A stretch of 55,806 nt of DNA from a virus (Duplodnaviria > Caudoviricetes), in the IMG/VR virus record IMGVR_UViG_3300037780_000011, positions 1 to 55,806 of that record. The stretch is one strand, 5' to 3'. The translations under genes and the position numbers were made by a program. The notes beneath the pieces were generated by a model. It did not search any database. It was given only the letters and a program-made list of their open reading frames with translations, and was not told where the DNA came from. Of this stretch, positions 2,726-53,971 are shown piece after piece (position 1 is the stretch's first letter; each line of letters starts with the position of its first letter).

Positions 2726-3573
2726 GTCAAAACGACTTCAACCTCACAAACCAAGGTTTCCCCGCAATGCGCGCCGATATGAACTCGGCGTTTCAGGCAT
2801 TGGCAAGCAACTCATCCGGCGCGACGGAACCTGGAACGACATACGCCTATCAGTGGTGGTATGATACCGACAATGACATCCTGAAAATGCGTAACGCAGA
2901 TGACGACGCATGGATTAACATTGCATCTTTCGATCAAGCGAGTGACACCTGGTCCCCTTATGTGGGTGCAACAGCGTTAACCGCTACAGGTGCAGAGTTA
3001 AACCTTCTTGATGGAGCGGTAGACCACGCTACAGCCGCGTGGGAGGCGGGCACGGCAACGGAGGCAGGTGTTCCTTCTCCAGCGGACGTTAAGGCGGCTA
3101 TTGATGCGCTTGGTGGAGGTGCAGACTTTTCCTCCGTTGCCGAAGACATCACTCCAGACGCCGACAGCACCCGCGATCTGGGTTCCTCAACAAAAGCATG
3201 GGCGGAAGCGCATGTTGACACTGTAATTTCTACCAACGTATCTGACGGAACCCTCTCCATACCCACCACCCATGTGACTAACGGTTCTGCGAAGGCGTGG
3301 GCTAACCTAAATGGAACAGGGACGATTGCGCTTCAGGATAGTTTTAATGTCTCAAGTGTGACGGACAATGGGACGGGGCTTTATACTTTCACTTTTTCCT
3401 CGGCAATGGATAATGCGAACTATGTTCTTTCCGGCGCAGCGGATACTGGCGCAGCGTTTGCTAATGTGGTTGTGGCCCGCACAAGGCTTGCTGGGAGCCA
3501 ACAAATTGTAACGACAAATGGAACTGCGATTGATCTTTCTCCAACCATAGCTATCCACGGAGACCTCGCATGA
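2722..3573 (+). CDS. Tail fibre / receptor-binding-type protein
   Basis: N-terminus MSQNDFNLTNQGFPAMRADMN is typical of fibre anchors. C-terminal AKAWANLNG...SFNVSSVTDNGTG fibre module. ATGA overlap with J. Confidence 0.75.
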   Translation: MSQNDFNLTNQGFPAMRADMNSAFQALASNSSGATEPGTTYAYQWWYDTDNDILKMRNADDDAWINIASFDQASDTWSPYVGATALTATGAELNLLDGAVDHATAAWEAGTATEAGVPSPADVKAAIDALGGGADFSSVAEDITPDADSTRDLGSSTKAWAEAHVDTVISTNVSDGTLSIPTTHVTNGSAKAWANLNGTGTIALQDSFNVSSVTDNGTGLYTFTFSSAMDNANYVLSGAADTGAAFANVVVARTRLAGSQQIVTTNGTAIDLSPTIAIHGDLA

Positions 3574-28032: not shown

Positions 28033-28193
28033 TGACCGACCTTATCAACCCCGCCAACTGGGGCGGCGCACAGTGGGTGCTTTTGTGCCTTGTTACGTTT
28101 GGGCTTGTCAGCAAAAAGGATGAACTACTCATCCAAACACTTGGTGCTGCTCTCATGCTCGCCATCCTCGCATGGGGAGGCTTTTGGGCGTGA
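28032..28193 (+). CDS. 53-aa two-helix membrane protein
   Basis: Read by hand (MTDLINPANWGGAQWVLLC...); coupled to both neighbours. Confidence 0.55.
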   Translation: MTDLINPANWGGAQWVLLCLVTFGLVSKKDELLIQTLGAALMLAILAWGGFWA

Positions 28194-29188
28194 TGCAAAC
28201 CACCTACATCCAACACTGCGGGTCCGACCTTATGGTGGCCAATGCAGCGCGTGTGTCGTTTGATAAGAAGCATGATGAGTTTGACGATGACAAGGACACC
28301 CGCTTGATCCGCTACCTGGCGCGTCATGGACATACCAGTCCCTTCAACCACACGTTCATCACGCTACACGTCAAGGCTCCTGTCTTCGTGGCGCGGCAAA
28401 TGGTAAAGCACCGTTTCATGATTTGGAACGAGGTGTCTAGGCGCTATGTTTCCGAGAGGCCAGAGTTCTATTATCCTGAAGTGTGGAGGATGGCTGCCGA
28501 AGACAAGAAGCAAGGCAGCAGCGAAGTCGCGTTTGACATAGACAAGTCATACCGTGAAAAGTATGGAACCAGACCGGACCAGTCTATCACGAATCGAAAA
28601 CTGACTAACTGGAGGAACGGTGCGAAGAGGAAAGGCATTGAGTTTAACCTTGAATACGATGACATCCCTTGGGTTACTCACTGCCCGATTTTAGGCGTTA
28701 AACTTGACTACGACAGGAAGGGACATGGTAACAATGGCCCGGATTCGCCATCGCTCGACAGAATCAACAATGAGAAAGGATACGTAAAAGGTAACGTCCA
28801 AGTCATATCCAGACTTGCGAACACGATGAAAAATTCTGCTACGCCAGAGCAAATACGGCAATTTTGCTTGAACATGCTTCCGAGATATGGTGTATTCAAC
28901 TCTGGATCAGACACGGTAGAAGATTACTGTGAGGGAGTGGCGGACACTTATGAGCGCCTTATTAAGGAGGGGCTTTGCCCTGAGCAAGCAAGAGGTATCC
29001 TGCCATTGAATCATTACACCCAATGGTATTGGTCTGGAACACTTGGAGCATGGGCAAGCATGTATAACCTTCGTGCAAAACCGGATGCACAGGCTGAAAC
29101 ACGCATGATCGCGGAGCAGGCTGGTTCATTGATTGAGCCGCTGTTTCCGGTAAGTTGGGGTGCTTTGACTGGAGACGCAAAACAATGA
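28193..29188 (+). CDS. thyX: Flavin-dependent thymidylate synthase with an in-frame HNH-type endonuclease-like insertion
   Basis: NAARVSF, HTSPF, VARQMVKHR...NEVSRRY, PEQARGILP and AQAETR motifs; about 120 extra residues at 28535-28906. Confidence 0.92.
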   Translation: MQTTYIQHCGSDLMVANAARVSFDKKHDEFDDDKDTRLIRYLARHGHTSPFNHTFITLHVKAPVFVARQMVKHRFMIWNEVSRRYVSERPEFYYPEVWRMAAEDKKQGSSEVAFDIDKSYREKYGTRPDQSITNRKLTNWRNGAKRKGIEFNLEYDDIPWVTHCPILGVKLDYDRKGHGNNGPDSPSLDRINNEKGYVKGNVQVISRLANTMKNSATPEQIRQFCLNMLPRYGVFNSGSDTVEDYCEGVADTYERLIKEGLCPEQARGILPLNHYTQWYWSGTLGAWASMYNLRAKPDAQAETRMIAEQAGSLIEPLFPVSWGALTGDAKQ

Positions 29189-31080: not shown

Positions 31081-31574
31081 CCCCAAAGACTACACATCCG
31101 CAGCCTGCGCAGACGCGCTGGTGGAGGGGCTGACCCTGTATGCATTGCAGGCGGCACATGACGTTGCTGATAGCCCGCAGGAGTTCTTCTGGGCCGTCCA
31201 GGGCGCTATTCTGTTGAAGGAGGTGACGGATGCCAACACTTGACGCCATCATCGCCGCCGCCTCCCTGTGGGGGCTTGCGCTTACAGCCGCATGGCTGCT
31301 TGTGCGCTATGTTATGCGGTGGGGCTGGGTTATCCCGGTTACGCTTGTGGTTGTCACGTTGATTTTTGTTACGGCTGCCATGCTGTCGTGAAATTGGAGA
31401 GGGATAAATGATGTTTACATTTGAAGGTTTGTTTTCTGGTCTCGTAGCAACTATTGGAGTGTGCATGTTTTGTATGCTAATGATTTCCTTCGTAAAGATT
31501 TTTGGCAGATCATTCTTGATTAACCTTTTATTTTTTGCGCCAGTATTTTTGATTGCTGCTTGGGTATTCTCCCA

Positions 31575-32096
31575 ATGATCTCCGCAGATGACATCGCCGC
31601 GTTTGAGCGGCCTAAGCTTTTGATCTTAGGTGCAGCACGTCACGGCAAGGACACCGTGGCTGAAATCCTGGCGCGCAAATACGGGTTCCGGTTTACATCG
31701 TCGTCCGAGTTCGTCGGGCGCGAGATCATCTGGGACGATTGGGGTAAACGGTTCTACCCAGACTTCGACGCCATGTTCGCTGACCGGGTGAACCACCGTG
31801 AACTGTGGATGCGGATGATCTCGCTCTACAACACACCGGACAAAACCCGCACCGCACGCACGATGCTGGCACGCGGTTACGATATGTATGTGGGTATGCG
31901 GCGTATGGACGAACTGTCTGCTTCCCGTCACCTGTTTGAATACGTGATCTGGGTCGAGCGCGCTGGTTTCCCACCAGAGACCGGCAGTATGGACATCACG
32001 AAAGAACTGGCGAAGCCGGACTACGTGATCCACAACGGAGGCACGCTGGAAGAACTGGAAGCATCGGTAGACGTTGTTGCGCGCCAAATCATGTGA
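31575..32096 (+). CDS. Deoxynucleoside monophosphate kinase-like P-loop protein
   Basis: LILGAARHGKDTVAEIL and DYVIHNGGTLEEL. Confidence 0.75.
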   Translation: MISADDIAAFERPKLLILGAARHGKDTVAEILARKYGFRFTSSSEFVGREIIWDDWGKRFYPDFDAMFADRVNHRELWMRMISLYNTPDKTRTARTMLARGYDMYVGMRRMDELSASRHLFEYVIWVERAGFPPETGSMDITKELAKPDYVIHNGGTLEELEASVDVVARQIM

Positions 32097-32108: not shown

Positions 32109-33596
32109 ATGCAACTGACACCTGAGCAAATCCTTGAGCACGGACCGGAGGCCCTACAGAAAGTCAGGGCGGAACTTGCGCGTAGGAGCCTGCTGGAGTT
32201 CACACGGCAGGCGTGGCCTATCTTGGAACCGGGTGTCAAGATGAAAGAAGGATGGGCTATCGAGGCCATCTGCGAACATCTTGAAGCGGTTATACGCGGT
32301 GAGATCAAACGCCTCGTCATCAACATTCCGCCTGGAGCAATGAAGTCGCGGCTGACCCGCGTGATGCTTCCTTTACATCTATGGACGCAGAAGCCGTGGT
32401 CACGGGTTATCGGAGCGTCATACGCACTTAGCCTCAGCGAGCGAGACAACTACTATGCACGGACCATCCTGCAAACCGACTGGTATCAGCAGAACTTCGG
32501 TGTCTCGATCTCGTCAGAACAAGGCGCAAAAGTGAACTTCGACAACTCTCACATGGGTGGTCTACGCGCCATGTCGGTTGGCGGTGCAACGACCGGCTTC
32601 CGTGGCGACCTGTTGATCCTTGATGACGCCCACAACGCTTCTGAAGGTGAATCCGACGCTAAGCGATCAGAAGCCGTCCAATGGTTCCTTGAAACATTCC
32701 AGACCCGTGTGAACGACCTAGACAACAGCCCGATTATAGTTGTGGGACAGCGTATCCACGAGGAGGACGTGTATTCCACGGCCATTGAACTCGGATACGA
32801 ACACCTGAACATCCCGATGGAATGGGAAGAAGAGCAGCGCAAGACCACGAGCATCGGCTGGACGGACCCGCGCACTGAGGAAAACGAGTTGATGTGGCCG
32901 GAACGGTTCAGTGCAGAAGCCGTCGAGAGATTAAAAGCGGCGCTCGGCCCATACGCTGCGTCGGCGCAACTACAACAGCGTCCCGTCCCCCGCAAAGGCG
33001 GACTGATCCAAGTGGACAACATCCGCATTATTGATGAGTTGCCAGATGAGAACTTCATCGCCGTGCGAGCATGGGACTTGGCTGGCAGCGAAGGAAAGGG
33101 GGCATACACGGTCGGCACAAGACTCCTGTGGGGAGAGGCAAGCCAGCAGTTTTATGTCGCGGACATCCAGCGCAAGCAGTTGGGCGGTGGTGGCGTGCGA
33201 GACCTGATTCAGCGTATGGCGGATGAAGACGGGATCACCACGAAAATCGTCATACCGCGCGACCCCGGACAGGCCGGTAAGGCCCAGTCGGAAGACATCG
33301 CAGCGCAGTTGCGTGGATACAGCGTCAAGGTCGAAGCACAGTCCGGGTCGAAGGAGTTGCGCGCGGAGCCTTTTGCCTCGCAGGTCGAGATCGGAAAGGT
33401 CAATGTTCTCAATAGGACATGGACGAAAGCATGGCTGGACGAGTTGCGGTTCTTCCCAAAGGGAAAATACAAGGATCAGGTTGACGCAACGGCTTCTGCC
33501 TTTAACGAACTCGCAGCGATGACACGACGCGGCAGGAAGACACCACAGTTGTCGCTGGTTGGCTCCAAACAAGACAATGTTTTCAAAGTGGCATAA
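32109..33596 (+). CDS. terL: Terminase large subunit
   Basis: INIPPGAMKS (Walker A), LLILDDAH (Walker B), RAWDLA and KDQVDA nuclease acidic residues. Confidence 0.95.
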   Translation: MQLTPEQILEHGPEALQKVRAELARRSLLEFTRQAWPILEPGVKMKEGWAIEAICEHLEAVIRGEIKRLVINIPPGAMKSRLTRVMLPLHLWTQKPWSRVIGASYALSLSERDNYYARTILQTDWYQQNFGVSISSEQGAKVNFDNSHMGGLRAMSVGGATTGFRGDLLILDDAHNASEGESDAKRSEAVQWFLETFQTRVNDLDNSPIIVVGQRIHEEDVYSTAIELGYEHLNIPMEWEEEQRKTTSIGWTDPRTEENELMWPERFSAEAVERLKAALGPYAASAQLQQRPVPRKGGLIQVDNIRIIDELPDENFIAVRAWDLAGSEGKGAYTVGTRLLWGEASQQFYVADIQRKQLGGGGVRDLIQRMADEDGITTKIVIPRDPGQAGKAQSEDIAAQLRGYSVKVEAQSGSKELRAEPFASQVEIGKVNVLNRTWTKAWLDELRFFPKGKYKDQVDATASAFNELAAMTRRGRKTPQLSLVGSKQDNVFKVA

Positions 33597-33636: not shown

Positions 33637-34923
33637 ATGGCACGCCAATTTCAGGAACTCGGGGTAGCGTCGGATTCTCGCCCGGATTGGGGAATCAGGA
33701 ATGACGAGTTCGTTGTCCAGCTTCGTGGGCGACAGGGCATCAAGAAGTATAGGGAGATGGCTGAGAATGACCCCATCATCGGGGCCATCTTGACAGCCCA
33801 GACCATGATGCTGCGGTCTATCGAGTGGCGCGTCGAGGAGGGGTCGGAAACTGCTGTCGAGTTCGTCCGTAGCGTCATGCACGGTATGGACGACAAGTCA
33901 TGGGAGGAGTTCGTCGCAGATGTCCTGACCATGCTCCCATACGGCTTCAGCCTGTTCGAGATGGTTCCGCGACGGGATAGTGATGGCCTTGTCCGTATGA
34001 AAAAACTGGCGTCCCGTGCTGCGTGGACGATTGACAGGTTCGAGACCACGGAAACCGGCGACATCAAGGGCGTGTGGCAGGTTGCAGCGCAGAAGAACGT
34101 CTACATCCCGTATAATAGACTGTTGCATTTCCGCACCACTTCTGCGGCCAACGAGCCTTCAGGCCGTTCTGTGTTACGTTCTGCCTACACTTCATGGCAC
34201 GCCGCGAACAACATCAAGTATTTTGAAGGGGTTGGCATCGAGCGCGAGTTGAACGGTCTGCCTATCTGGTCAATCCCCGGCGAGTGGTTCTCCAGTGACG
34301 CGCCAGACTGGCAAAAGAACTTCATCTCGGAGGCGAAACGTATCGGACGCGACGTGAAGCGCAACGAGCAGGGATTCATTGCTGTCCCGTCAGACCTGTG
34401 GGCCGAAGATGATGGTAAGCTGACCAATTCACCGATGGTCAAGTTTGACCTGATCGCGTCCAAGGGCACCCGTGACATCGACACCGGAAAGGTCATCACT
34501 CGTTACCAGCAGGAAATGGCTATGTCCTGTATGGCTGATTTCGTGATGCTTGGTATGAACGACCGTGGGTCTTTTGCGCTGTCAAAATCCAAGGCTGACC
34601 TGTTCCTGAAGGCGCTGGAAGGTTACGCTGACACGATTTCCGCGCAGTTGAACCGGAAACTGCTGCCCTATCTGTGGGAGTTAAACGGCATGAACAAGGA
34701 TGACATGCCGAAGATCGTGCGTGGCCGGATCGCGCCCGTGGACCTTGAAGAACTCGGCACGTTCATCCAGCGTCTTGCGCTGTCCGGTGTGGACCTGTTC
34801 CCAGACGACCGCCTAGACAAGCACCTGCGCGACGTTGCTGGCCTCCCTGAAGGTGACCCAGACAGGCCGCGCCCTAATGCTGTGGCGCAGGAGGCGGAAG
34901 GTAATGACCCAACCATGGCCTGA
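33637..34923 (+). CDS. Portal protein (DUF935-like)
   Basis: Follows terL; PYGFSLFE, NEPSGRSVLRSAY and GSFALS motifs. Confidence 0.9.
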   Translation: MARQFQELGVASDSRPDWGIRNDEFVVQLRGRQGIKKYREMAENDPIIGAILTAQTMMLRSIEWRVEEGSETAVEFVRSVMHGMDDKSWEEFVADVLTMLPYGFSLFEMVPRRDSDGLVRMKKLASRAAWTIDRFETTETGDIKGVWQVAAQKNVYIPYNRLLHFRTTSAANEPSGRSVLRSAYTSWHAANNIKYFEGVGIERELNGLPIWSIPGEWFSSDAPDWQKNFISEAKRIGRDVKRNEQGFIAVPSDLWAEDDGKLTNSPMVKFDLIASKGTRDIDTGKVITRYQQEMAMSCMADFVMLGMNDRGSFALSKSKADLFLKALEGYADTISAQLNRKLLPYLWELNGMNKDDMPKIVRGRIAPVDLEELGTFIQRLALSGVDLFPDDRLDKHLRDVAGLPEGDPDRPRPNAVAQEAEGNDPTMA

Positions 34924-44739: not shown

Positions 44740-45191
44740 CAGCCACATACACCGACCCATCTAACTCAAACTCTGATGCCGTCAGGTTCCTGATCGGTGA
44801 TACCGATGTGGACGGGACTAACGACGCTGACCTGACTGATGCTGAGATCGCCTTCGCGCTGACGCAAGCCGAGAATGACATCTACCTTGCAGCGGCCATG
44901 TGCGCTCGCGCTATCGGCGCAAAGTATGCGTCCGATACGGACCAACGCTTTGAGAATGTCTGGTCCAACGGCAGCAGCACGGCAGACAACTACTACAAAC
45001 TGGCTGTCCGGCTGGAATCGCAGTCCAAGAAGTTCGGCAGCAAAGGCTTTGGCGTCCCGCTCGCTGGTGGCATGACTGTTTCCGGTATCCGCGCGAATGA
45101 CGAGAACGACGACCGCGTTCAGCCGAAGTTCAAGCAGGACCAGTTTGCTAACCCGCCGAGCCATTACGATGGTGACAAGTATGGCTATTAA
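44736..45191 (+). CDS. Head-tail adaptor
   Basis: DAVRFLIGDTD...LTDAEI pattern; position. Confidence 0.75.
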   Translation: MTATYTDPSNSNSDAVRFLIGDTDVDGTNDADLTDAEIAFALTQAENDIYLAAAMCARAIGAKYASDTDQRFENVWSNGSSTADNYYKLAVRLESQSKKFGSKGFGVPLAGGMTVSGIRANDENDDRVQPKFKQDQFANPPSHYDGDKYGY

Positions 45192-45732
45192 ACGTGACAG
45201 TGAGGTAGCCAAATACGTCGCCGCCTACCAGCACGAGAACTACCGGCTCGGGGACCGTCGTCGTAAACACATCCTGAAGCACCTTGAGCGCATCGAACGT
45301 GGCTCTCTGCTGGACGTATCCACCGGGCGTGGTGAAGTGCTGATGATGGCAGAGAAGCTTGGGCACGGCCCCGTGCAGGGCACCGAGGCTGTCCCATACC
45401 TCTGTGACGGCAAGCATGTCGTAAACTCTCTTGTCCACGACCTGCCGTTTGACGATGACGCTTTCGATACCGTCACGATGTTCGACGTGATGGAGCATCT
45501 TGTTCCGAGTGACACCGCTCTCGCCTGCAAGGAACTGAAGCGTGTCGCCAAGAAACGTGTTCTACTGACCGTCCATAATGGCCCTTCAAGATTTAACGGT
45601 GTTGACCTCCATGTGAACCGGCGTGAAAACTACGAGGCATGGCATGAAGAACTCGCTGACCACTTCGATGAAAAGGTGATCCGCTGGGGTAGCGAGGGGT
45701 CTATTTCGGAGATGTTTGAGGTCATCCTATGA
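45181..45732 (+). CDS. Class I SAM-dependent methyltransferase
   Basis: SLLDVSTGRG, LPFDDDAFDTVTMFDVMEHL. Confidence 0.85.
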   Translation: MAIKRDSEVAKYVAAYQHENYRLGDRRRKHILKHLERIERGSLLDVSTGRGEVLMMAEKLGHGPVQGTEAVPYLCDGKHVVNSLVHDLPFDDDAFDTVTMFDVMEHLVPSDTALACKELKRVAKKRVLLTVHNGPSRFNGVDLHVNRRENYEAWHEELADHFDEKVIRWGSEGSISEMFEVIL

Positions 45733-45748
45733 AGAGGTCATATTGTGA

Positions 45749-46327
45749 ATGACTACCTGTTATGTCATCGCATCTGGCCCGTCCCTGCAAGGGTTTGACT
45801 TTAATCGCCTTCCTGATGGCTACCGTATAGGTGCCAACAAGTCAGCCTGGATCGCAGACTGTGATGCACTTGTCACGATAGACAAGCGGTTCTGGCGCGG
45901 CTTTCAGGATGAAGTCGTTAAGTTCAAAGGTGACAAATATGTCACAGAACTTGTAGTTGACGATCAGCCAAGGCACGGCGCTCATGTATCAAAACGCGGC
46001 AGGTTTAAAGGTCTGTCAGAATCCCTTGATGAATTGACCGGCACCAATTCCGGGTTTGCCGCCCTGAATATCGCATATCTTCTTGGATACAAGGAGATCG
46101 CGCTACTAGGCTTCGACTTCAAATGGGATGGCGATAAAAGTCATTTCCATGACGGCTACAGGTGGCAGGCACGCAACACGTCAAACATGCTTCCGCGATG
46201 GGCGCGAGAGTTTGACCATACCGTTGAGCAGTTTGCAGCCAAGGGTGTAAACGTGATAAACTTTGTCGGGCCGAACGGTTCAAATGTGACAGCATTTCCG
46301 ACGCGCCCATTGGAGGATTTGATATGA
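45749..46327 (+). CDS. Glycosyltransferase-like protein (MAF/DUF115, GT42-like fold)
   Basis: YVIASGPSL, NSGFAALNIAYLLGYKEIALLGFD, SHFH. Confidence 0.7.
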   Translation: MTTCYVIASGPSLQGFDFNRLPDGYRIGANKSAWIADCDALVTIDKRFWRGFQDEVVKFKGDKYVTELVVDDQPRHGAHVSKRGRFKGLSESLDELTGTNSGFAALNIAYLLGYKEIALLGFDFKWDGDKSHFHDGYRWQARNTSNMLPRWAREFDHTVEQFAAKGVNVINFVGPNGSNVTAFPTRPLEDLI

Positions 46328-46893
46328 CAACCGTATTGACTGTGCTGCGGCGTGGTGGCGATTTCAAAGATGAGCATGTAGAGCGTCTGCGCAAACAGGT
46401 GGAACCCTACACTGATGCCTTCCTGTGTCTTGACGATGAAATCCTTGAGCATGACTGGCCGACATGGTGGCCCAAGATTGAAATGTTCAAAGTCAGCGGC
46501 CCATGCCTCTATTTCGATCTGGACACAACGATTACGGGCGACATCACGCCCATGTTGGAAGCAGCGGAGCAGCATCCTTTCATTGCATTGCGTAACCCAA
46601 GCAAGGGCGTTTCTATCGGCTCCGGTATCATGGCGTGGAATGGCGATATGTCACGGCTCTACGAAAAATTCGCACGTCGCCCTGAACTCTACATGGACAG
46701 GTATCGCAAGATGCCGAAGATCGGAGATCAGGGATTCATCTGGGACAACAACCTTGAACCCGTAACCTATTGGCAAGACCTGTTTCCTGATCAAATCCTC
46801 AGCTACAAGGTGAATTGCAAGCGCACTATGCCCAAGGAAGCGATGGTGGTATATTTCCACGGAAAGCCACGCCCTTGGGACGTTGAGAAATGA
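46324..46893 (+). CDS. GT-A fold glycosyltransferase (GT8-like)
   Basis: WWPKIEMF, LYFDLD (DxD), GDQGFI and VYFHGKPRPW. Confidence 0.8.
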   Translation: MTTVLTVLRRGGDFKDEHVERLRKQVEPYTDAFLCLDDEILEHDWPTWWPKIEMFKVSGPCLYFDLDTTITGDITPMLEAAEQHPFIALRNPSKGVSIGSGIMAWNGDMSRLYEKFARRPELYMDRYRKMPKIGDQGFIWDNNLEPVTYWQDLFPDQILSYKVNCKRTMPKEAMVVYFHGKPRPWDVEK

Positions 46894-47234
46894 GCCTGCA
46901 AAAATCGGTTGACGACCTTGTTGCGAAGCACGGATACGCCGTATCTTTCAGTCGTGCGCAGTCTGGCGGGGCTTACGATCCTGTAACAGGGGATGTTACA
47001 GGTGGCACTACGCTCACGTGGAGCGGTGAAGGTATCTACGCCGATTACATGGAGAACGAAGTCAACGGAACGTCAATCACGAACGACGACCGGAAACTGA
47101 TGCTCAAGGCAACAGGATTGACACGCGCCCCGGAACCCGGTGATCTCGTTGATGACGCATACCAAATCCTGAACGTCCGCACCACGAAATCCGGCTCTAC
47201 TATCATTGGCTATGTCTGTCAGGTCAGGGGGTGA
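46890..47234 (+). CDS. Head closure protein
   Basis: GAYDPVTG...DDRKL...YVCQVR; position. Confidence 0.7.
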   Translation: MSLQKSVDDLVAKHGYAVSFSRAQSGGAYDPVTGDVTGGTTLTWSGEGIYADYMENEVNGTSITNDDRKLMLKATGLTRAPEPGDLVDDAYQILNVRTTKSGSTIIGYVCQVRG

Positions 47235-47237
47235 GGT

Positions 47238-47720
47238 TTGGTTGGTGTAAACGTAACTGTAACAGGAAACACTGTTCAGGCTGAAATTGATCTTATCGAG
47301 TCTGACATTAGGGAACTGAAAAAAGAAGTCCTCACAGGCTTGGCAAGAATAATTTCAGAAAAAAGCCCTGTAGACAGCGGAACATACGCTGTTAGCCATG
47401 AGGTGTCGGCTGGAAGCGGCATAACCGGCGGAACAAGATCAAGAAGCCCAAATGCTAAAAGAGTAAGTAAGGGTGGCGTTGCCCAATATCCAAACGCAAA
47501 ACAACAGGGCTTTCAGAACATGATTGGTGCAATCAACAGCATCAGCATGGATTCAAACAGTTTTGTGATAAGTAATCCAATGGATTATGCAGCACTTATT
47601 GAAGCTGGAGTATATGGTTTGAAAACTGGAGGTAAACCACCTCCCTATGCTTCCGCAATTCGTGAGGCGCCCAGTATCATTGAGCGCGTTGCACAACAGA
47701 TCGCCGCGAGGAACCGCTAA
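47238..47720 (+). CDS. Tail completion protein (HK97 gp10-like)
   Basis: SPVDSG...NPMDYAALIEAG. Confidence 0.7.
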   Translation: MVGVNVTVTGNTVQAEIDLIESDIRELKKEVLTGLARIISEKSPVDSGTYAVSHEVSAGSGITGGTRSRSPNAKRVSKGGVAQYPNAKQQGFQNMIGAINSISMDSNSFVISNPMDYAALIEAGVYGLKTGGKPPPYASAIREAPSIIERVAQQIAARNR

Positions 47721-48127
47721 TGCCCATCATGAACGACATCCGCGCAACGCTTGACGGTGCCTTGGCTGATTTGTCCAACCTACCGCCTATCGCGTTTGAG
47801 AACGCGCCATTCTCGCAGATCGCAGGATCGGCGCACCTGCGCACGTCCCTGTTCCTTACGTCCCGTCGCCCCGCCGTCCGTGGACCCAATCCGCAGCACC
47901 GCTATCAGGGCCTCTACCAGATCACCATTGCCACACCCACCGACATCGGGACGGGTGACGCCTTTGACTACGCTGACACGCTCATGGACGCTTTTGACGG
48001 CTCCACAGACATCATCGGTGACGCCGCCACTGTCTCCATTGAATACGCAGAACTCGGAACGCAGGTGTTTTCTGATCCGTTCTACCTGCTTCCGGTGCAG
48101 GTTGGGTGGTATGTGTATAGTGATTAG
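47720..48127 (+). CDS. Tail terminator protein
   Basis: IAFENAPF...GLYQITI; position before the tail tube gene. Confidence 0.75.
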   Translation: MPIMNDIRATLDGALADLSNLPPIAFENAPFSQIAGSAHLRTSLFLTSRRPAVRGPNPQHRYQGLYQITIATPTDIGTGDAFDYADTLMDAFDGSTDIIGDAATVSIEYAELGTQVFSDPFYLLPVQVGWYVYSD

Positions 48128-48153
48128 AAAGAGGGACGCCGAAGCGCCCCTCT
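48126..48153 (-). terminator. Terminator of the TIGR operon
   Basis: Minus strand AGAGGGGCGC-TTCG-GCGTCCCTCT-TTCT. Confidence 0.75.
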
Positions 48154-48154
48154 G

Positions 48155-48202
48155 AAGTGTGACTCGCGCGCTCTGGTTTACTCATGAAGCGTGGTCACAC
48201 TT
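48155..48202 (-). ncRNA. TIGR-type guide unit 5 (overlaps the tasA stop codon)
   Basis: AAGTGTGA-CCA-CGCTTCATG-AG-TAAA-CCA-GAGCGCGCG-AG-TCACACTT. Confidence 0.85.
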
Positions 48203-48962
48203 TTCTCCAAGCCAAAGTCAAATCCTTCAGCAATTCTTTCGTCATGTAGCGCATGGCGCGGTTGTGGGCGTGTCCTTTTGAGATGTCGCGCGCCAACTCG
48301 TATTCCTTTCGCTTATCATAGATAATACGATACCGTCCAGCGTTTTCATCTTTGCCTTGCGCCTTCAATAGCGGGTCAGCGATATTCCAGAACACCGAAC
48401 GACGCTCCGGGCTGTATCCATGTTCTAGTGCGGCTTCGCCCGCCACACGACGTTGACGACCTCCGTTGATGACAGCAAGCCCAGCCCGCTTCCACACACC
48501 CGCAACGGACGGGTAAACAGACAAGTCTCCGCACTCAGCGACAGTCTTTGCGAGAGCAAGCGCACCGAAACCCTTGATAGATTCCGTGAACGGATAGATC
48601 GGAACCTGCTTGCCAAGTTTCTCAAGTTGACGCTCGTATGACTTGCGTTGCTGTTCAAGCGGATCGCGTGCCATCAGAAGCGGCGCGACAGCCAGAGCCT
48701 CCGGGCCATCATAACCCTTGCCGATTGCGCCATAGAGTTTGGTGGCTTCCTCCTTGCTGCCGCCACAAAGACGCCGAAGGACGGCCTGCGCTTGCAGGGA
48801 CAGCCTGGACTGTGCGCGCACCATGTCCTGACGAAGCCGCCATGTCTCAACGATCTGGATGATAAGGGGATCGGCAAAGCGCCGATCCCCCTCAAAGCGA
48901 GGCTCTCTAACAATGGACTTCTGGCATGGGGTGGCCTCGCTAAACTCAATAAGGTCTTTCAT
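48195..48962 (-). CDS. tasA: TasA-like RNA-guided DNA-binding protein (IS110/Nop-related, no nuclease domain)
   Basis: Coiled-coil segment then IKGFGALALAKTVAECGDLSVYPSVAGVWKRAGLAV and GHAHNRAMRYMTKELL. No N-terminal DEDD RuvC domain and no SG catalytic loop. Flanked by dual-spacer stem-loops; AAGGAG RBS. Confidence 0.8.
   Translation of the reverse strand: MKDLIEFSEATPCQKSIVREPRFEGDRRFADPLIIQIVETWRLRQDMVRAQSRLSLQAQAVLRRLCGGSKEEATKLYGAIGKGYDGPEALAVAPLLMARDPLEQQRKSYERQLEKLGKQVPIYPFTESIKGFGALALAKTVAECGDLSVYPSVAGVWKRAGLAVINGGRQRRVAGEAALEHGYSPERRSVFWNIADPLLKAQGKDENAGRYRIIYDKRKEYELARDISKGHAHNRAMRYMTKELLKDLTLAWRKV
48896..48941 (-). ncRNA. TIGR-type guide unit 4 (inside the tasA coding sequence)
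   Basis: AGCGAGG-CCA-CCCCATGCC-AG-AAGT-CCA-TTGTTAGAG-AG-CCTCGCT. Confidence 0.8.
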
Positions 48963-48983
48963 GTGTATCTCCTTTTATTAACC

Positions 48984-49027
48984 TTGTGACTACGTTTTTT
49001 TGGGTGACTGTCATTAGGTGGTCACAA
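48984..49027 (-). ncRNA. TIGR-type guide unit 3
   Basis: TTGTGA-CCA-CCTAATGAC-AG-TCAC-CCA-AAAAAACGT-AG-TCACAA. Confidence 0.85.
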
Positions 49028-49036
49028 AGTATGGGT

Positions 49037-49107
49037 TTTCAGGGTTTGGTGTGGCTTGAATCCGTTGGTTTCCAATCGGCGGTTGGCTCACTCTCCAAAC
49101 CCTGAAA
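49037..49107 (-). ncRNA. TIGR-type guide unit 2
   Basis: TTTCAGGGTTTGGAGAGTGAG-CCA-ACCGCCGAT-TG-GAAA-CCA-ACGGATTCA-AG-CCACACCAAACCCTGAAA. Confidence 0.85.
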
Positions 49108-49111
49108 CTAT

Positions 49112-49165
49112 TGCGTGGTTGGCTAATTCCTGGCGGATTGCTTCACCCCATTGGCCAACCACGCA
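49112..49165 (-). ncRNA. TIGR-type guide unit 1
   Basis: TGCGTGGTTGG-CCA-ATGGGGTGA-AG-CAAT-CCG-CCAGGAATT-AG-CCAACCACGCA. Confidence 0.85.
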
Positions 49166-49170
49166 GCGGC

Positions 49171-49659
49171 CTAAGCCGCAACTCTGACCGCTTCCAAGTC
49201 GTCCGGTTTGAACGCCTCGGCCACGGTCTGTTTTTCTGTCATCTTCTCGGCAACGATACCGAAGAAGCGCGCCTTGTCGGCCATGTGGTCCGACATCTTG
49301 CTATAGTAGTCGCGTTCATCAACGACTTCTTCCTTCATGGCATCCCCGAGACGCTTACCGGAACGCAAACGCATATCCATGATTGTCAGGCTGTTGATCT
49401 GCGCCAAGACTTTCGCGCGTTCATCCGGCGCTACTGGACGTTCCCAGTTTGCAACAGTCTTGTTCCAGATGTTCTTTCGCTGTCCGCGCTTTGCGTCACC
49501 GATAAGACCATTAACAACGGACCATTCATGCGGCTGCATGACGGCGCGATACAATGCGCGGTCATTTTCCATCATCCGCAACATATTCTCACATGCTTGT
49601 TTGACGCTATCCGCACCATCCCAAGCTGCCTCAATGGCTTCTTTCACGTTCATGCTCAA
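49171..49659 (-). CDS. Uncharacterised helical protein, first gene of the TIGR operon
   Basis: 162-aa ORF; the AGGAG RBS favours the ATG at 49653; between the promoter and guide unit 1. Confidence 0.8.
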   Translation of the reverse strand: MSMNVKEAIEAAWDGADSVKQACENMLRMMENDRALYRAVMQPHEWSVVNGLIGDAKRGQRKNIWNKTVANWERPVAPDERAKVLAQINSLTIMDMRLRSGKRLGDAMKEEVVDERDYYSKMSDHMADKARFFGIVAEKMTEKQTVAEAFKPDDLEAVRVAA

Positions 49660-49681
49660 CTCCTAACGAATCGCAAAGCCA

Positions 49682-49711
49682 CCCAACCACACTCCCAACC
49701 GATTCGTCAAG
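49682..49711 (-). promoter_or_regulatory. Promoter of the CTTGACGAATC class (copy 4), upstream of the TIGR operon
   Basis: Minus strand CTTGACGAATC-N10-GTGGTT. Confidence 0.65.
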
Positions 49712-49789
49712 CGCGAATCACGACGTGTTGTTGCACGGCAACAGTCAACCTGATATTATCGCAACAACGATTTTATCTTGGAGACTGTC

Positions 49790-50704
49790 ATGGCGTTCGC
49801 CCAGGGATCACGTAGCGCATTGGCCGTAGGTGTAGAAGGCACGTTCGGAACGGAAGCCTCCTCCTATGACCTTGTTCCCATCAAGACCCATTCGCTTGAT
49901 CTGACGAAAGAGCGCTTGCAAGGCATGGACATTCAGGCGGACCGTATGCCGCGTGTCAGCCGTCACGGGAACCGCCAAGCCGCAGGGTCCATCGAAGTTG
50001 ACCTCCGCATGGGGAACTACGACGACTTCCTTGAATCGGCCATGCTGTCCACCTTTGACAGCAACGATGAAATGACCATCGGCACTACGCCGAAGTTCCT
50101 GACTATCGAAGATCGCCTCGCGGACATTACGCAGTATCGCCTGTTCACCGGCATGGCTGTATCGACCGCCACGTTCAGCATCGCGCCGAACCAGATGGTC
50201 AACACCACCTTTGAAATGGTCGGCAAGAACGCATCCATCAGCGGCACGCCTAAGTCTGCATCTGCTGCTACCACCAACACCCCATTTGACAGCTATAACG
50301 GCTCTATCTACGAAGGTGGTGTCGGCACGTCTGACCTGATCGAGATTGTCACTTCGGTTGAGTTCAGCATTACCAACTCGTTCGCACCTACTTTCGTGAT
50401 CGGTGACGACACCGCTCCGCAACTTGAATATGGCCGGTCGATCATCGAAGGCACCATGACGGTGTATTTCGAGGATGCGACTCTTATCAACAAGTTTCTC
50501 AACGAGACTGAGAGCGAATTGCAAGTTAGTGTCGCGGAACCCGGTGGGACCAACCCTTACACGTTCTACTTCCCGCGCATCAAATTTAACGGTGCATCAG
50601 TTCCCCTAGCAAACGAACAGTCCCGCACAATTGAACTGCCATTTGAGGCACTCCATGACAGCGTAGAAGGCACCCAGATGCTTCTCACGCGCTCGTCCGC
50701 CTGA
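49790..50704 (+). CDS. Major tail tube protein
   Basis: MAFAQGSRS...RHGNRQAAGSI...FLNETES; GGAG RBS; upstream of the chaperones and tape measure. Confidence 0.9.
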   Translation: MAFAQGSRSALAVGVEGTFGTEASSYDLVPIKTHSLDLTKERLQGMDIQADRMPRVSRHGNRQAAGSIEVDLRMGNYDDFLESAMLSTFDSNDEMTIGTTPKFLTIEDRLADITQYRLFTGMAVSTATFSIAPNQMVNTTFEMVGKNASISGTPKSASAATTNTPFDSYNGSIYEGGVGTSDLIEIVTSVEFSITNSFAPTFVIGDDTAPQLEYGRSIIEGTMTVYFEDATLINKFLNETESELQVSVAEPGGTNPYTFYFPRIKFNGASVPLANEQSRTIELPFEALHDSVEGTQMLLTRSSA

Positions 50705-50793
50705 TCCCGGCGTCGGGATTTCCGGGCGGGCGGTGAAGTCGGGGTCATCGCTCGCCCATCCCTGACATACCCCGTCACCTAAGGAGACCCCCG

Positions 50794-51192
50794 ATGGGCT
50801 TGAATAAAGTCGGTGTCGTCAAGGACACCACGGACGTTGAACTCGTCCACCCGATGAGCGGAGAAGTGCTGACCAACGATGATGGTAGCGCGATGACCAT
50901 TACCGTCTATGGTCCGTATTCCGACTTCTACAAGAAAACCATGCACGCACAACAGAACAAGCGTCTCGCAAAAGCACAGCGCATGGGCGGAAAGATGAAC
51001 CTGACCGCCGAAGAATTGGAAGCGGGTGCTCTGGACCTTCTGGTGAAATGCACCAAGGGCTGGAAGATTACGCTGGATGAAGGCTTGGAGAAATTCTCCG
51101 AGGCGAAAGTCCGCGAAGTCTACACGGAATTGCCTTGGGTGCGTGACCAGGTTGAAGCGGTAATGGGAGACACCCGCGCTTTTTTGGGCTAG
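50794..51192 (+). CDS. Tail assembly chaperone (gpG-like)
   Basis: Position; ends at the slippery sequence T TTT TTG. Confidence 0.85.
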   Translation: MGLNKVGVVKDTTDVELVHPMSGEVLTNDDGSAMTITVYGPYSDFYKKTMHAQQNKRLAKAQRMGGKMNLTAEELEAGALDLLVKCTKGWKITLDEGLEKFSEAKVREVYTELPWVRDQVEAVMGDTRAFLG

Positions 51193-51545
51193 TCCAAAGT
51201 AGGCTTCTCGATTTCGCTGAACACTCGTTCGCACTAAACAAGACGGACAAGAAAGGTGTTTCCTTGCGGGAACACCTTGAGCAAGTCGAGAAGTCTACCG
51301 GCAAGACACCTGAAGAACTCATCGGACCTGAGTTCCCTGACATCGCCGCTCATGTTTGGGCTGCTTTTCTCGACCTCCATAAGGGCCGCTCTTATGGCAT
51401 GTCAGGAGGCAATCCGCTAACATGGTCGGACATAGCCGCATGGTGTAACCTCACGGGAATTGTGTTATCTTCGTGGGAAGTAGACACTATCAAGGCGCTG
51501 GATATGGCGTGGGTCGCGTCAGCCAACGAGCGAGATGACCAATGA
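51180..51545 (+). CDS. Tail assembly chaperone frameshift extension (gpT-like)
   Basis: The -1 frame is open from 51180 to 51545; no good independent RBS and ATG. Confidence 0.75.
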   Translation, partial: FFGLVQSRLLDFAEHSFALNKTDKKGVSLREHLEQVEKSTGKTPEELIGPEFPDIAAHVWAAFLDLHKGRSYGMSGGNPLTWSDIAAWCNLTGIVLSSWEVDTIKALDMAWVASANERDDQ

Positions 51546-53971
51546 GCCTAAGAACGGTCGGGATTGAGTTTGAACTAAAAGGACAGAGGGAGGTTGTTCA
51601 GGGCCTTAAAAATGTTGCCAAGGCTCAGGAGGCTTTAACAAGGGGGATTCGTGTATCAGTAGACGCATCCAACTCCAATGCGAGAAGCCTAGACAGAATC
51701 GCAAGAGAAGCCCTGAAGGCGCAGCGAGAAATGGATAGGCTTGCGAAAGCTCTTTCTCAAGGTCGGATCGCGTCTTCCCAATTTCATGCCGAGACAAATA
51801 AGATAGCCACAAGGCTAAGGTCTATGGGAATGGACCGAGCGCAGTCAGAGGTTACTAGGTATAAGAACGCGCTTCTTCAGGCATCGCAAGGCCAACGTAT
51901 GCTTGCTACTGCAACAGTAGCCGGAACACAGAGATCGGATGCGTTTGAAGCACAGACACGACAAACAACAAATGCACTAAATGAGCAAGCTGCGGCAAAC
52001 CAATTTGCTGGCAGAAGAATGAACGCTATGGGTATGGCAACCCAGCAAGTTGGTTATCAGGTCGGTGACTTCTTGGTGCAGGTGCAATCCGGCACAAACG
52101 CTTTCGTGGCGTTCGGTCAGCAGGCCACGCAGTTGGTTGGTATTCTGCCGCTCATGGCTGACAGTCTTAACGTAAGCACAGGAAGAATGATTTTGATTTC
52201 TTCTGTGCTTGGTATTTTGATTCCCCTTATGACAGCTTTTGGTGCGGCTTTGGCAAGGACGGGTGGTGCGGGAGAAATATTCTCTGAACTCGCTTATGCG
52301 CTTGAGCCTATAAGACCGCTTCTTGATGCTCTCGCAGTCGCAATGTCTACTGTCGCGGAAGTCACCATAAACACAGTTAATCTGCTCGTTAATAACTTGG
52401 ATCGCCTTGTTGTAATGGCGACTGTTGTTGCTGCCTTTTTCGCAGCCAAATGGGTTGCTGCTTTTGTGGCAGCGGGCGGTGTTACTGCCGCTCTTACTGG
52501 CGCTCTCGGGCTTCTCAGGATCGCAATGCTAAGGCTTCCTTTCGTTGGACTCGTGGTTGTGGCGACTGAAATCGTCTATCAGTTTTCACGGTTGGCAAAT
52601 GCGGCTGGTGGACTTGGCGAAGCAATGTCTATGGTTGGCGCTGTCATTGTTGAATTGTGGCAAAGGGCTGGTGTCGCAACGCGAGCCGCTGGTGCCGTGT
52701 TTTCAGAAGTTTTCAACAGTATGAAAGCGAACGCAGCGTCCGCTGTCCAAGAGACACTTACAAGCATTGTCGGGCTTGCAAACACTATTGCCAACGCTTT
52801 TGAGGGTGCGTTTCTAGCAGTTCAGGCAATATGGCAGGCACTGCCCAATGTATTTGCCCGCGTCGGCGCTATGGCCATGAACGCTCTTATAGGCGCAATG
52901 CAGCAAGGATTGACAGCTCTTGTTGGAGTAATGAACGACGTTCTGACTCTTGGCGGTCTCGCACCAGAAATGGCAATACCAGCGCCAGATTTGTCAGGGT
53001 GGCAAGTCACTGTCCCGGAGGCCGCAAACATTGGCGTTGCAATATCTGACGCATTTAATTCCGCATTTGACGACAATCCATTGCAAGTTCCTGATATTGG
53101 GCTTCAGGGGATCATAGACAGATCGCTTGAGGATGCTGATTTTTACAGGGGAGTTGCAGCGGACTTGGCGGAGCAACTGAATATGCCCCTTGAGGCATTG
53201 AATGAACTGCGCCAAGCGATGATTTCAGCAAATGAGGAAGGCCGCAACATTGATGTCAGAGAGTGGTTTGGAGGACTATCTGATGAGGATGCTGGTGGCG
53301 GAACCGGCGGAGGCGCTACAGATGAGGCAAGCAGCGCGCTAGAAGACATGCAAAGACAGTTTGAGAGTCTAGCAGAAACCATAAAATCATCCATGTCTGA
53401 CGCCTTCATGTCTATCGTAGATGGGACAAAAACTGCTGCCGAGGCGTTCAGGGATATGGCCCGGAACATACTCAAGCAACTCTTTGATATTCTCGTTGTC
53501 CAAAGGATAGTAGGTTCTTTCGATAGTCAGACAGGAACCGGAACTGGTTTGGTCGGCGGCATAATGAGGATTTTCGGTTCCGCAAATGGTAATGCCTTTC
53601 AATCTGGTAACGTCATACCATTTGAAAAAGGTTCGGCCCTTTATAGCGGAAACGTCATCCCCTTCGCCAACGGTGGCGTCGTATCCAGTCCGACCATGTT
53701 CCCGATGCGCGGCAACCAAACCGGTCTCATGGGCGAGGCTGGCCCGGAAGCGATCATGCCACTCAAGCGTGGGCGTGACGGTAAACTAGGTGTGCAGGCA
53801 GAAGGTGGTGGCGGTAACGTCGTGGTAAACAATCACTTCCACTTCCAAGCCAACGGTGATGAAAGCGTCAAGAGGATCATCGCACAGGAAGCACCTAAAA
53901 TAGCTAATCTGACACAGCAGCAGATCATCGACCAGCGGAAGCGCGGTGGTGTAATGAAGGCAACATTTTAA
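51542..53971 (+). CDS. Tape measure protein
   Basis: Long Ala/Gly-rich helical ORF; QQVGYQVGDFLVQVQSG and C-terminal GLMGEAGPEAIMPL. Confidence 0.93.
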   Translation: MSLRTVGIEFELKGQREVVQGLKNVAKAQEALTRGIRVSVDASNSNARSLDRIAREALKAQREMDRLAKALSQGRIASSQFHAETNKIATRLRSMGMDRAQSEVTRYKNALLQASQGQRMLATATVAGTQRSDAFEAQTRQTTNALNEQAAANQFAGRRMNAMGMATQQVGYQVGDFLVQVQSGTNAFVAFGQQATQLVGILPLMADSLNVSTGRMILISSVLGILIPLMTAFGAALARTGGAGEIFSELAYALEPIRPLLDALAVAMSTVAEVTINTVNLLVNNLDRLVVMATVVAAFFAAKWVAAFVAAGGVTAALTGALGLLRIAMLRLPFVGLVVVATEIVYQFSRLANAAGGLGEAMSMVGAVIVELWQRAGVATRAAGAVFSEVFNSMKANAASAVQETLTSIVGLANTIANAFEGAFLAVQAIWQALPNVFARVGAMAMNALIGAMQQGLTALVGVMNDVLTLGGLAPEMAIPAPDLSGWQVTVPEAANIGVAISDAFNSAFDDNPLQVPDIGLQGIIDRSLEDADFYRGVAADLAEQLNMPLEALNELRQAMISANEEGRNIDVREWFGGLSDEDAGGGTGGGATDEASSALEDMQRQFESLAETIKSSMSDAFMSIVDGTKTAAEAFRDMARNILKQLFDILVVQRIVGSFDSQTGTGTGLVGGIMRIFGSANGNAFQSGNVIPFEKGSALYSGNVIPFANGGVVSSPTMFPMRGNQTGLMGEAGPEAIMPLKRGRDGKLGVQAEGGGGNVVVNNHFHFQANGDESVKRIIAQEAPKIANLTQQQIIDQRKRGGVMKATF

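Follow-up and report, generated by a model that had tools for sequence, protein, structure and literature searches.

A probable stem-loop TIGR-TasA system with a conserved partner gene in a complete phage genome

The window, the whole stretch of 55,806 nt analysed here, corresponds to a complete virus record that has direct repeats at its termini (IMG/VR record IMGVR_UViG_3300037780_000011; Duplodnaviria, Caudoviricetes). Between its tail terminator and tail tube genes, antisense to the late structural operon, lies a 1.55-kb minus-strand cassette that probably encodes a stem-loop TIGR-TasA system. The cassette begins with p160, a 160-residue accessory gene (49171..49653, stop included), which is followed by three stem-loop tigRNA units (U1 to U3), by tasA (48195..48962), encoding a nuclease-less Tas protein of 255 residues, and by a hairpin with a UUCG loop. 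Two further units overlap tasA itself, U4 within codons 8-22 and U5 over the stop. The first-pass annotation of this DNA had three hairpins between the two genes and one beyond tasA; U1 to U3 do lie between the genes, while the placement of the others needs correction, U4 being inside tasA and the 5′ arm of U5 covering its end. The upstream gene, first given as 162 residues, is most likely 160 residues long, starting at ATG 49653, because its homologues have this length; an AGGAG stands 7 nt upstream of this ATG. The divergent intergenic region (49654..49789), which separates the minus-strand cassette from the plus-strand tail-tube-like gene, is the presumed location of the cassette promoter. 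At the other end of the cassette, the terminator-like hairpin (48130..48153, minus strand) has a 10-bp stem and a UUCG loop followed by UUUCU. It folds at -19.4 kcal/mol (z -5.4); a consensus terminator scan makes no call for it on the minus strand because its T-run is short.

All five units are on the minus strand. Each has two 9-nt spacers, every spacer preceded by box C and followed by box D, and is enclosed by a stem directly adjoining the boxes; these variable palindromic stems stand where edge repeats would be. U1 (49112..49165) has its core at 49123-49154, CCA-ATGGGGTGA-AG-CAAT-CCG-CCAGGAATT-AG, and folds at -29.8 kcal/mol (z -4.9). U2 (49037..49107) has an extended stem with an internal loop, a folding energy of -32.7 kcal/mol (z -5.8) and the core CCA-ACCGCCGAT-TG-GAAA-CCA-ACGGATTCA-AG at 49055-49086. 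The core of U3 (48981..49030; -11.5 kcal/mol, z -2.3) is located at 48990-49021 and reads CCA-CCTAATGAC-AG-TCAC-CCA-AAAAAACGT-AG. The intragenic U4 (48896..48941; -12.6 kcal/mol, z -1.8), with the core CCA-CCCCATGCC-AG-AAGT-CCA-TTGTTAGAG-AG at 48903-48934, lies in DNA that encodes the disordered, unconserved N-terminus of TasA. In U5 (48155..48202; -19.3 kcal/mol, z -3.8) the core, at 48163-48194, is CCA-CGCTTCATG-AG-TAAA-CCA-GAGCGCGCG-AG, and the 5′ arm covers the final two codons of tasA and its stop. Direct reading of the sequence places a CUU at the stem base of U3, U4 and U5, and not of U1 or U2. No Rfam family was matched at E ≤1.

The common loop grammar of these hairpins, CCR-N9-WG-N4-CCR-N9-AG, is far above chance. 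The pattern has six matches in the window, compared with a mean of 0.75 expected from 100 dinucleotide shuffles, of which the largest count is 3 and none reaches 6. Five of the six are the minus-strand units, which lie within 1 kb with their hairpins spanning 48155-49165; the sixth, on the plus strand at 47653-47684, is without a closing stem and is taken as a chance match. A looser grammar combined with a stem requirement gives six weak matches in the rest of the genome, against a shuffled-genome mean of 3.7. The first-pass annotation of the units is borne out in each of these respects: five hairpins have a common loop grammar, the boxes and 9-mers are exactly as first listed, all ten 9-mers are different, the stems differ from unit to unit and are mostly unrelated, and the second box reads AG in nine of ten positions, the remaining one being TG.

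The assignment of the 255-residue protein to the Tas family of proteins with a Nop/IS110-like C-terminal domain is supported by three independent lines: profile, sequence match and predicted fold. The NCBIfam model NF052498 (TIGR_Tas_endo), which is named for endonuclease forms, matches residues 87-253 with an E of 8.4e-27, and phmmer aligns the protein to the solved TasR (PDB 9mty) with an E of 6.3e-12. In an AlphaFold model built from 31 homologues (predicted local distance difference test, pLDDT, 84.9; predicted template modelling score, pTM, 0.78), residues 1-23 are predicted to be disordered, residues ~32-117 form a coiled coil and residues ~123-254 form an RNA-binding domain like that of Nop and IS110 proteins. 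Ranks 1-10 of the Foldseek search are occupied by TasR 9mty (E 4.5e-6, TMq 0.60) and TasH entries, with TMq values of 0.57-0.63; after TasR and eight TasH chains come ISCro4 and IS621 (E ~0.02), and then Nop5, Nop56/58 and Prp31. The Nop/IS110 relationship first proposed for this protein thus holds in both profile and structure searches. The protein ends soon after the last helix that aligns to 9mty, Pfam reports no nuclease family, and the model consists of the coiled coil and the C-terminal domain. Since no nuclease domain is detected and the protein leaves no space for one, it is TasA rather than TasR or TasH, and its description as nuclease-less stands; DEDD_Tnp_IS110 (PF01548) has no match anywhere in the window. 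Long homologues of TasA (330-440 residues; P0008-P0119) have low-complexity N-terminal extensions of 65-180 residues that are rich in P, A, G and S and contain repeated short motifs. Box C, as CCA or CCG, is a proline codon, and because of this the extensions look, from their sequences, like translated intragenic tigRNA arrays.

Related tas loci, numbered with L, are present in nine viral, 21 metagenome and eight genome contigs; of the genomic TasA proteins, the closest (60% identity) is encoded by a 9-kb contig from a Roseicyclus metagenome-assembled genome. The units in these relatives are strongly confined to the tas strand. Over 30 loci, a detector that requires a stem finds 90 units on the tas strand and 8 on the opposite one, counts that include duplicates of the same contig and a double parse. 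When boxes alone are counted over 34 non-duplicate loci (142,865 nt), 88 of the 319 matches on the tas strand, and none of the 107 on the opposite strand, have an abutting stem of at least 5 bp. In relatives the units occupy three places: the interval from p160 to tasA, the 5′ end of tasA itself, as in L002, L011, L013 and L059, and the sequence downstream of it. Box D is AG in the window and its nearest relatives, L002/L011 and L008; most other loci have CG or TG, and L027 and L030 have TG.

The spacers turn over between these loci while the boxes are kept, as the first-pass annotation had anticipated for orthologous loci. A single 6-bp stem sequence, GTGTGA/TCACAC, recurs at U5 of the window and at units located downstream of tasA in L002/L011 and L014, and the three spacer pairs that it closes are unrelated. 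Near relatives, represented by contigs of four public DNA runs that align to the locus at a likeness of at least 80%, give the same picture among the 40 best-supported of 356 differences, which are illustrative and not a statistical test. Within these 40, U2 has changes at seven of the nine positions of spacer A, at three positions of spacer B together with an insertion or deletion, and at two linker positions, and U4 has changes in its two spacers and in the linker. Box C and the G of box D are unchanged throughout these 40. A near relative has AG rather than TG as the first box D of U2. Among the public runs listed as containing the locus, none is an RNA run. Two results named beforehand as contrary to the assignment were looked for, a missing Nop/IS110 fold and invariant 9-mers between variable boxes; what was found is the fold, and variable 9-mers between constant boxes. 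In a sister clade (L003-L007, L015-L023) the half-units are separated by a conserved 8-nt linker, CAGAAATG, and some whole units, such as CACAAGGTC / ACCTGTTGG, are common to many contigs. The sister-clade arrays resemble the intermediate between stem-loop and dual-repeat arrays noted in the text of Faure 2025 (PMC12045711), and their shared whole units hint at conserved targets.

The first gene of the cassette, p160, is a constant companion of these arrays. By tblastn, a homologue lies upstream of tasA in 18 of 30 loci. By profile, p160 immediately precedes the array, in the same orientation, in all 26 informative loci, the informative ones being those where TasA has 40% identity or more and the upstream sequence extends for 800 nt or more; eight loci among them (L025, L027, L051-L055 and L057) are independent of the rows on which the profile was trained. 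The profile has no match in L010, L031 and L058, which encode very distant Tas proteins, and only a weak partial match in L030. The host labels of the genome contigs are Roseicyclus, an alphaproteobacterium, Methylophilaceae, Pseudoxanthomonas, Luteimonas and Dehalococcoidia, and the fast-evolving p160 has relatives from alpha-, beta- and gammaproteobacterial to Dehalococcoidia contigs. The family comprises 1,759 representative clusters at E ≤0.001. The related-locus search with the closer p160 alignment returns the L002 contig only.

No known family accounts for p160. The protein itself matches nothing in Pfam, PHROGs or NCBIfam; none of 25 family members, sampled among the 150 listed, reaches the Pfam threshold, and 24 of the 25 have no PHROG family, the remaining one having an N-terminal endonuclease VII-like match. 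The predicted structure is all-helical, with two helices of ~30 residues (pLDDT 83, pTM 0.37), and it has no convincing match in the PDB by Foldseek (best E 1.8), in a wide VIA-align search (best Z 4.3) or in BFVD, where the best match (E 2.5e-3) is an unnamed viral protein of 172 residues; an accompanying ESM Atlas search gave no usable match. A ParB-like identity was considered and rejected: PF02195 has no match at E ≤1 on the protein or in the window, and the 25 sampled members are without ParB in Pfam. ParB is also absent among the fold matches of p160, which are weak for any fold. The TasA operons associated with TasParB, described in the text to fig. S14 of Faure 2025, are similar in having a second gene in the operon and units between the genes. 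They differ in having dual-repeat arrays and a ParB homologue, whereas p160 has no ParB_N signal. A fused form was not found when the p160 hidden Markov model was run against 120 TasA homologues. According to the text of Faure 2025, TasA has no clear protein associations except occasional ParB-like genes, and there the word "accessory" is applied to domains and RNAs, not to a partner protein. The main text of Xu 2026 (bioRxiv 10.64898/2026.09.09.750476), its supplement aside, does not use the words "accessory", "ParB" or "neighbor". A p160-like partner was not found in the published main texts on stem-loop TIGR-Tas, supplements largely aside.

p160 is most likely a functional partner. A more specific and rather doubtful proposal is that it would be an obligate third component of a distinct, two-protein subtype of stem-loop TIGR-TasA, or else an adaptor through which TasA, lacking a nuclease, would gain an effector output, in a p160-array-tasA cassette that moves between phage genomes and has an A-type box D.

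The 1.55-kb cassette is mobile, because a related phage (L002/L050) carries it at a different site. In that phage the tail terminator and tail tube genes are ~110 nt apart with no cassette between them, and the cassette is located, again antisense to the structural genes, between homologues of the window genes at 45097-45729 and 45749-46324. One contig from a public run (X5) joins position 48129 to 49685, skipping 1,555 nt that correspond exactly to the cassette with its UUCG hairpin; this junction would be the empty site in a sibling phage, weak evidence given the 24 nt on its shorter side. The same architecture is present, unannotated, at 1307-3421 of Rhizobium phage RHph_X2_25 (L059, MW960032.1), whose recorded host is Sinorhizobium americanum. 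Here a p160-like gene (profile E 3.6e-11) is followed by two units, by a tasA whose 5′ end contains three units, and by one unit downstream. The TasA of this phage, a 'hypothetical protein' of 351 residues, is 33% identical to that of the window, and the genes flanking the locus encode a repressor C and an XRE-family regulator.

Both the protein and the boxes recall guide systems other than TIGR-Tas, and these have to be weighed. A box C/D-like system that acts on RNA instead of DNA, for example in the modification or binding of host RNA, would share the Nop-like fold, the boxes around short spacers and the weaker structural matches to Nop5, Nop56/58 and Prp31. Archaeal and eukaryotic box C/D ribonucleoproteins (Nop5, Nop56/58) are indeed related, in a distant similarity of fold and in the logic of a guide with two spacers. 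However, fibrillarin (PF01269) has no match in the window, host-encoded partners being possible, no K-turn boxes are evident, the boxes being CCA and AG, and the structural E of TasR and TasH is ~1e-6 to 1e-4 against 0.14 for Nop5. The Tas family targets DNA: its characterised proteins bind or cut DNA, and TasR is inactive on RNA substrates in the experiments described in Faure 2025. An RNA target is accordingly very improbable.

It is slightly more improbable still that the cassette is a decayed insertion sequence of the IS110 family, with a transposase remnant that has lost its DEDD/RuvC domain and hairpins that are relics of a bridge RNA. TasA does match phrog_4285 'transposase' (E 7e-21) and the IS110 model NF033542 (E 9.4e-8), the recombinases IS621 and ISCro4 are among its fold matches, and the cassette occupies different sites in related phages. 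The bridge-RNA recombinases IS621 and ISCro4 also have a homologous C-terminal RNA-binding domain, and their guide loops are read by the same box logic, as described in Faure 2025. Yet the score against the IS110 model is 31.6 bits with a cut-off of 140, TasR and TasH rank above the IS110 recombinases in the fold search, and a DEDD or RuvC domain is missing. In place of one two-loop bridge RNA there are five separate, small dual-spacer hairpins, and a recombinase function is not expected. Furthermore, an intact tasA open reading frame is kept at 40-94% identity over many phage and bacterial contigs, always with arrays.

A further alternative is that the hairpins serve in ordinary regulation or stability, as attenuators, terminators or RNase sites, with a loop grammar that has no guide function and a protein that acts without them. 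It would agree with their intergenic and gene-end positions and with the weak folding of two of them (U3 and U4), but is equally improbable given the grammar far above chance, the 88 stemmed matches on the tas strand of relatives against none opposite, the fixed spacer lengths and box positions around variable 9-mers and stems, and the retention of one unit in the coding region of an unconserved protein sequence.

Several observations weigh against the assignment to stem-loop TIGR-TasA. U3 and U4 are only modestly more stable than their shuffled versions, and box D is mostly AG, not the UG or CG of characterised systems. The latter is treated as a variant rather than as exclusion from TIGR-Tas because, according to the text of Faure 2025, the box motifs may diverge if they covary. 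At 94.5 bits, the match to NF052498 is a near miss below the curated cut-off of 100, and the sole Pfam match, to PF02371 (Transposase_20), is below threshold. The cassette had been described as a self-contained minus-strand unit with its own promoter; its position between the two tail genes stands, but a consensus scan finds no sigma-70-like promoter upstream of p160. The presence of p160 means that calling TasA a plain binder may be incomplete.

The searches for targets are also to be counted here. In the phage's own genome, searched in both geometries with gaps of 0-2 nt and up to 4 mismatches, the guides U1 to U5 have 4, 6, 5, 0 and 5 matches, respectively, against ~2.6 per guide by chance (own arithmetic), and no site has 2 or fewer mismatches of 18 except the DNA of U3 itself. 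A collection of viral contigs was searched for exact 18-mers in which spacer A is followed, after a gap of 0-2 nt, by spacer B as its reverse complement, a single target geometry that is inferred from the 3′ overhangs described in Faure 2025. This search gave three loci for U1, two of them the same sequence, one for U2, none for U3 or U4, and 14 for U5, which are high in GC (0.58-0.69) and mutually unrelated. These matches were rejected as natural targets, being unrelated and at chance level, which leaves the guides with no natural target in either search. Since sites for none of the five guides lie in the phage's own genome, the guides are presumably directed at host genes or at competing mobile elements. 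Spacer A of U1 (49143-49151) is complementary to 8 nt of U4, in its box C and spacer A (48925-48933) at the 5′ end of tasA; as a meaningful pairing this was set aside, being at about chance level (~0.1 by own estimate) and in the wrong geometry for targeting. With all of this taken into account, the probability that the locus is a stem-loop TIGR-TasA system is put at about 0.85.

Every structural feature of the locus fits the descriptions of stem-loop TIGR-TasA in the published texts, including the position of U4 in a disordered N-terminus. Stem-loop TIGR arrays with TasA are described in Faure 2025, where the array of a TasA from a Peromyscus leucopus gut contig, with 13 units, is expressed and processed. 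The text of Xu 2026 counts 2,559 stem-loop arrays, describes units within tas genes where these encode disordered regions, notes a CUU motif at the base of stems and reports that TasA functions as an RNA-guided transcriptional repressor. The cryo-electron microscopy structure of PlTasA described in Guan 2026 (bioRxiv 10.64898/2026.08.11.744272) has two 9-bp heteroduplexes on opposite strands. The novelty implied by the first-pass annotation is therefore lost, as the architecture, with guides inside tas genes, was published in 2025-2026 (Faure 2025; Xu 2026). Supplementary file 3 of Faure 2025 includes a TasA (L002/L012) that is 72% identical to that of the window, and the clade is therefore already catalogued as Tas.

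The closest characterised systems, as far as their published texts describe them, are PlTasA (Faure 2025; Guan 2026) and BlTasA and MbTasA (Xu 2026). Like the system in the window, these have a nuclease-less protein with a coiled coil and a Nop domain, two spacers of ~9 nt with a box C (CCA) on the 5′ side and a box D on the 3′ side, variable palindromic stems, and a few units that lie upstream, downstream and inside the disordered region of the tas gene. The window differs from them in the AG of box D at nine of ten positions and in the conserved 160-residue gene before the array. TaTasR (9mty) and SpTasH of a Salicola phage (9vzx, 9w02-9w04), the best structural and sequence matches, also have a CCA box C and tandem 9-nt spacers, but they are RuvC or HNH nucleases that cut DNA, and their guides are 36-nt units from regular arrays of edge and loop repeats. 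Dual-repeat Tas proteins differ further in having a Y/H processing loop, which is missing in stem-loop Tas according to the text of Xu 2026.

Three features are additions to what the published main texts describe: the AG box D, the mobile cassette and the conserved, unannotated p160 partner. The first of these has a practical side. As given in the Methods of Xu 2026, the stem-loop finder seeds on TG or CG as box D and on perfect units, and the sole half-unit of the locus that fits this seed is the first half of U2. Because of such seeds, and with AG in most positions here, the array may escape the published finder, and similar arrays may be under-annotated.

Non-cutting, RNA-guided DNA binding is, by analogy with characterised members of the family, the likely mode of action. 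The expression, processing, binding and repression in the following scheme are drawn from the experimental record of the family, while the fold, the motifs, their conservation and the turnover of the spacers are features observed at the locus. The minus strand would be transcribed as one precursor that contains p160, U1 to U3 and tasA with U4 and U5, and that ends at the UUCG hairpin. As suggested by the text of Xu 2026, a host RNase would cut near the stem base and free each hairpin as a tigRNA of ~45-70 nt. A TasA dimer would then bind each tigRNA, with the C-terminal Nop-like domain reading box C (CCA or CCG) and box D (AG), and the G of box D would pair with the first C of box C, which would close both the outer stem and an inner loop of 4 nt; the solved complexes of TasR, TasH and PlTasA are the models for this step. 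The literature on family members describes an 18-bp DNA site at which each of the two 9-nt spacers pairs with a different strand. Because TasA has no nuclease, the complex would be expected to bind without cutting and to block transcription or replication, as is reported for MbTasA and dead TasR. The five guides would specify five different sites. Guide maturation and TasA synthesis should compete, since excision of U4 would strip tasA of its ribosome-binding site and start codon; the same trade-off is raised in the text of Xu 2026.

The remainder of the window has a siphovirus-like gene layout by PHROG matches. These include a terminase (32109-33593), a portal (33637-34920), a head closure protein (46890-47231), the tail terminator (47720-48124), the plus-strand tail-tube-like protein (start 49778/49790) and a tape measure protein (51542-53968). 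The tail-tube-like gene probably starts at ATG 49790 and not at the upstream TTG 49778, because the tail tube gene of a related phage aligns from that ATG. The region 47000-51000 has no blastn match among GenBank phages, and the terminases of Shewanella, Rhizobium, Paracoccus and Roseobacter phages have less than 40% identity to that of the window. A plus-strand open reading frame of 338 residues (28172-29185) matches thymidylate synthase at residues 8-120 and 248-320 and an HNH/endonuclease VII-like family at residues 104-235, an arrangement of matches that suggests a homing-endonuclease or intein-like insertion in thymidylate synthase. Another part of the same thymidylate synthase family is matched by a plus-strand open reading frame of 178 residues at 31560-32093.

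The core of these results is the rediscovery, from raw sequence, of a family published in 2025. The locus would represent a native example of stem-loop TIGR-TasA in a complete phage genome, with five natural guides, and RHph_X2_25 is a cultured phage that can be used as a laboratory model. The part of the locus worth following up is the p160 partner. Two questions that the published papers state, in their texts, to be open are how stem-loop tigRNAs mature and what role TasA plays in nature, and a fixed p160 partner makes both of them testable.

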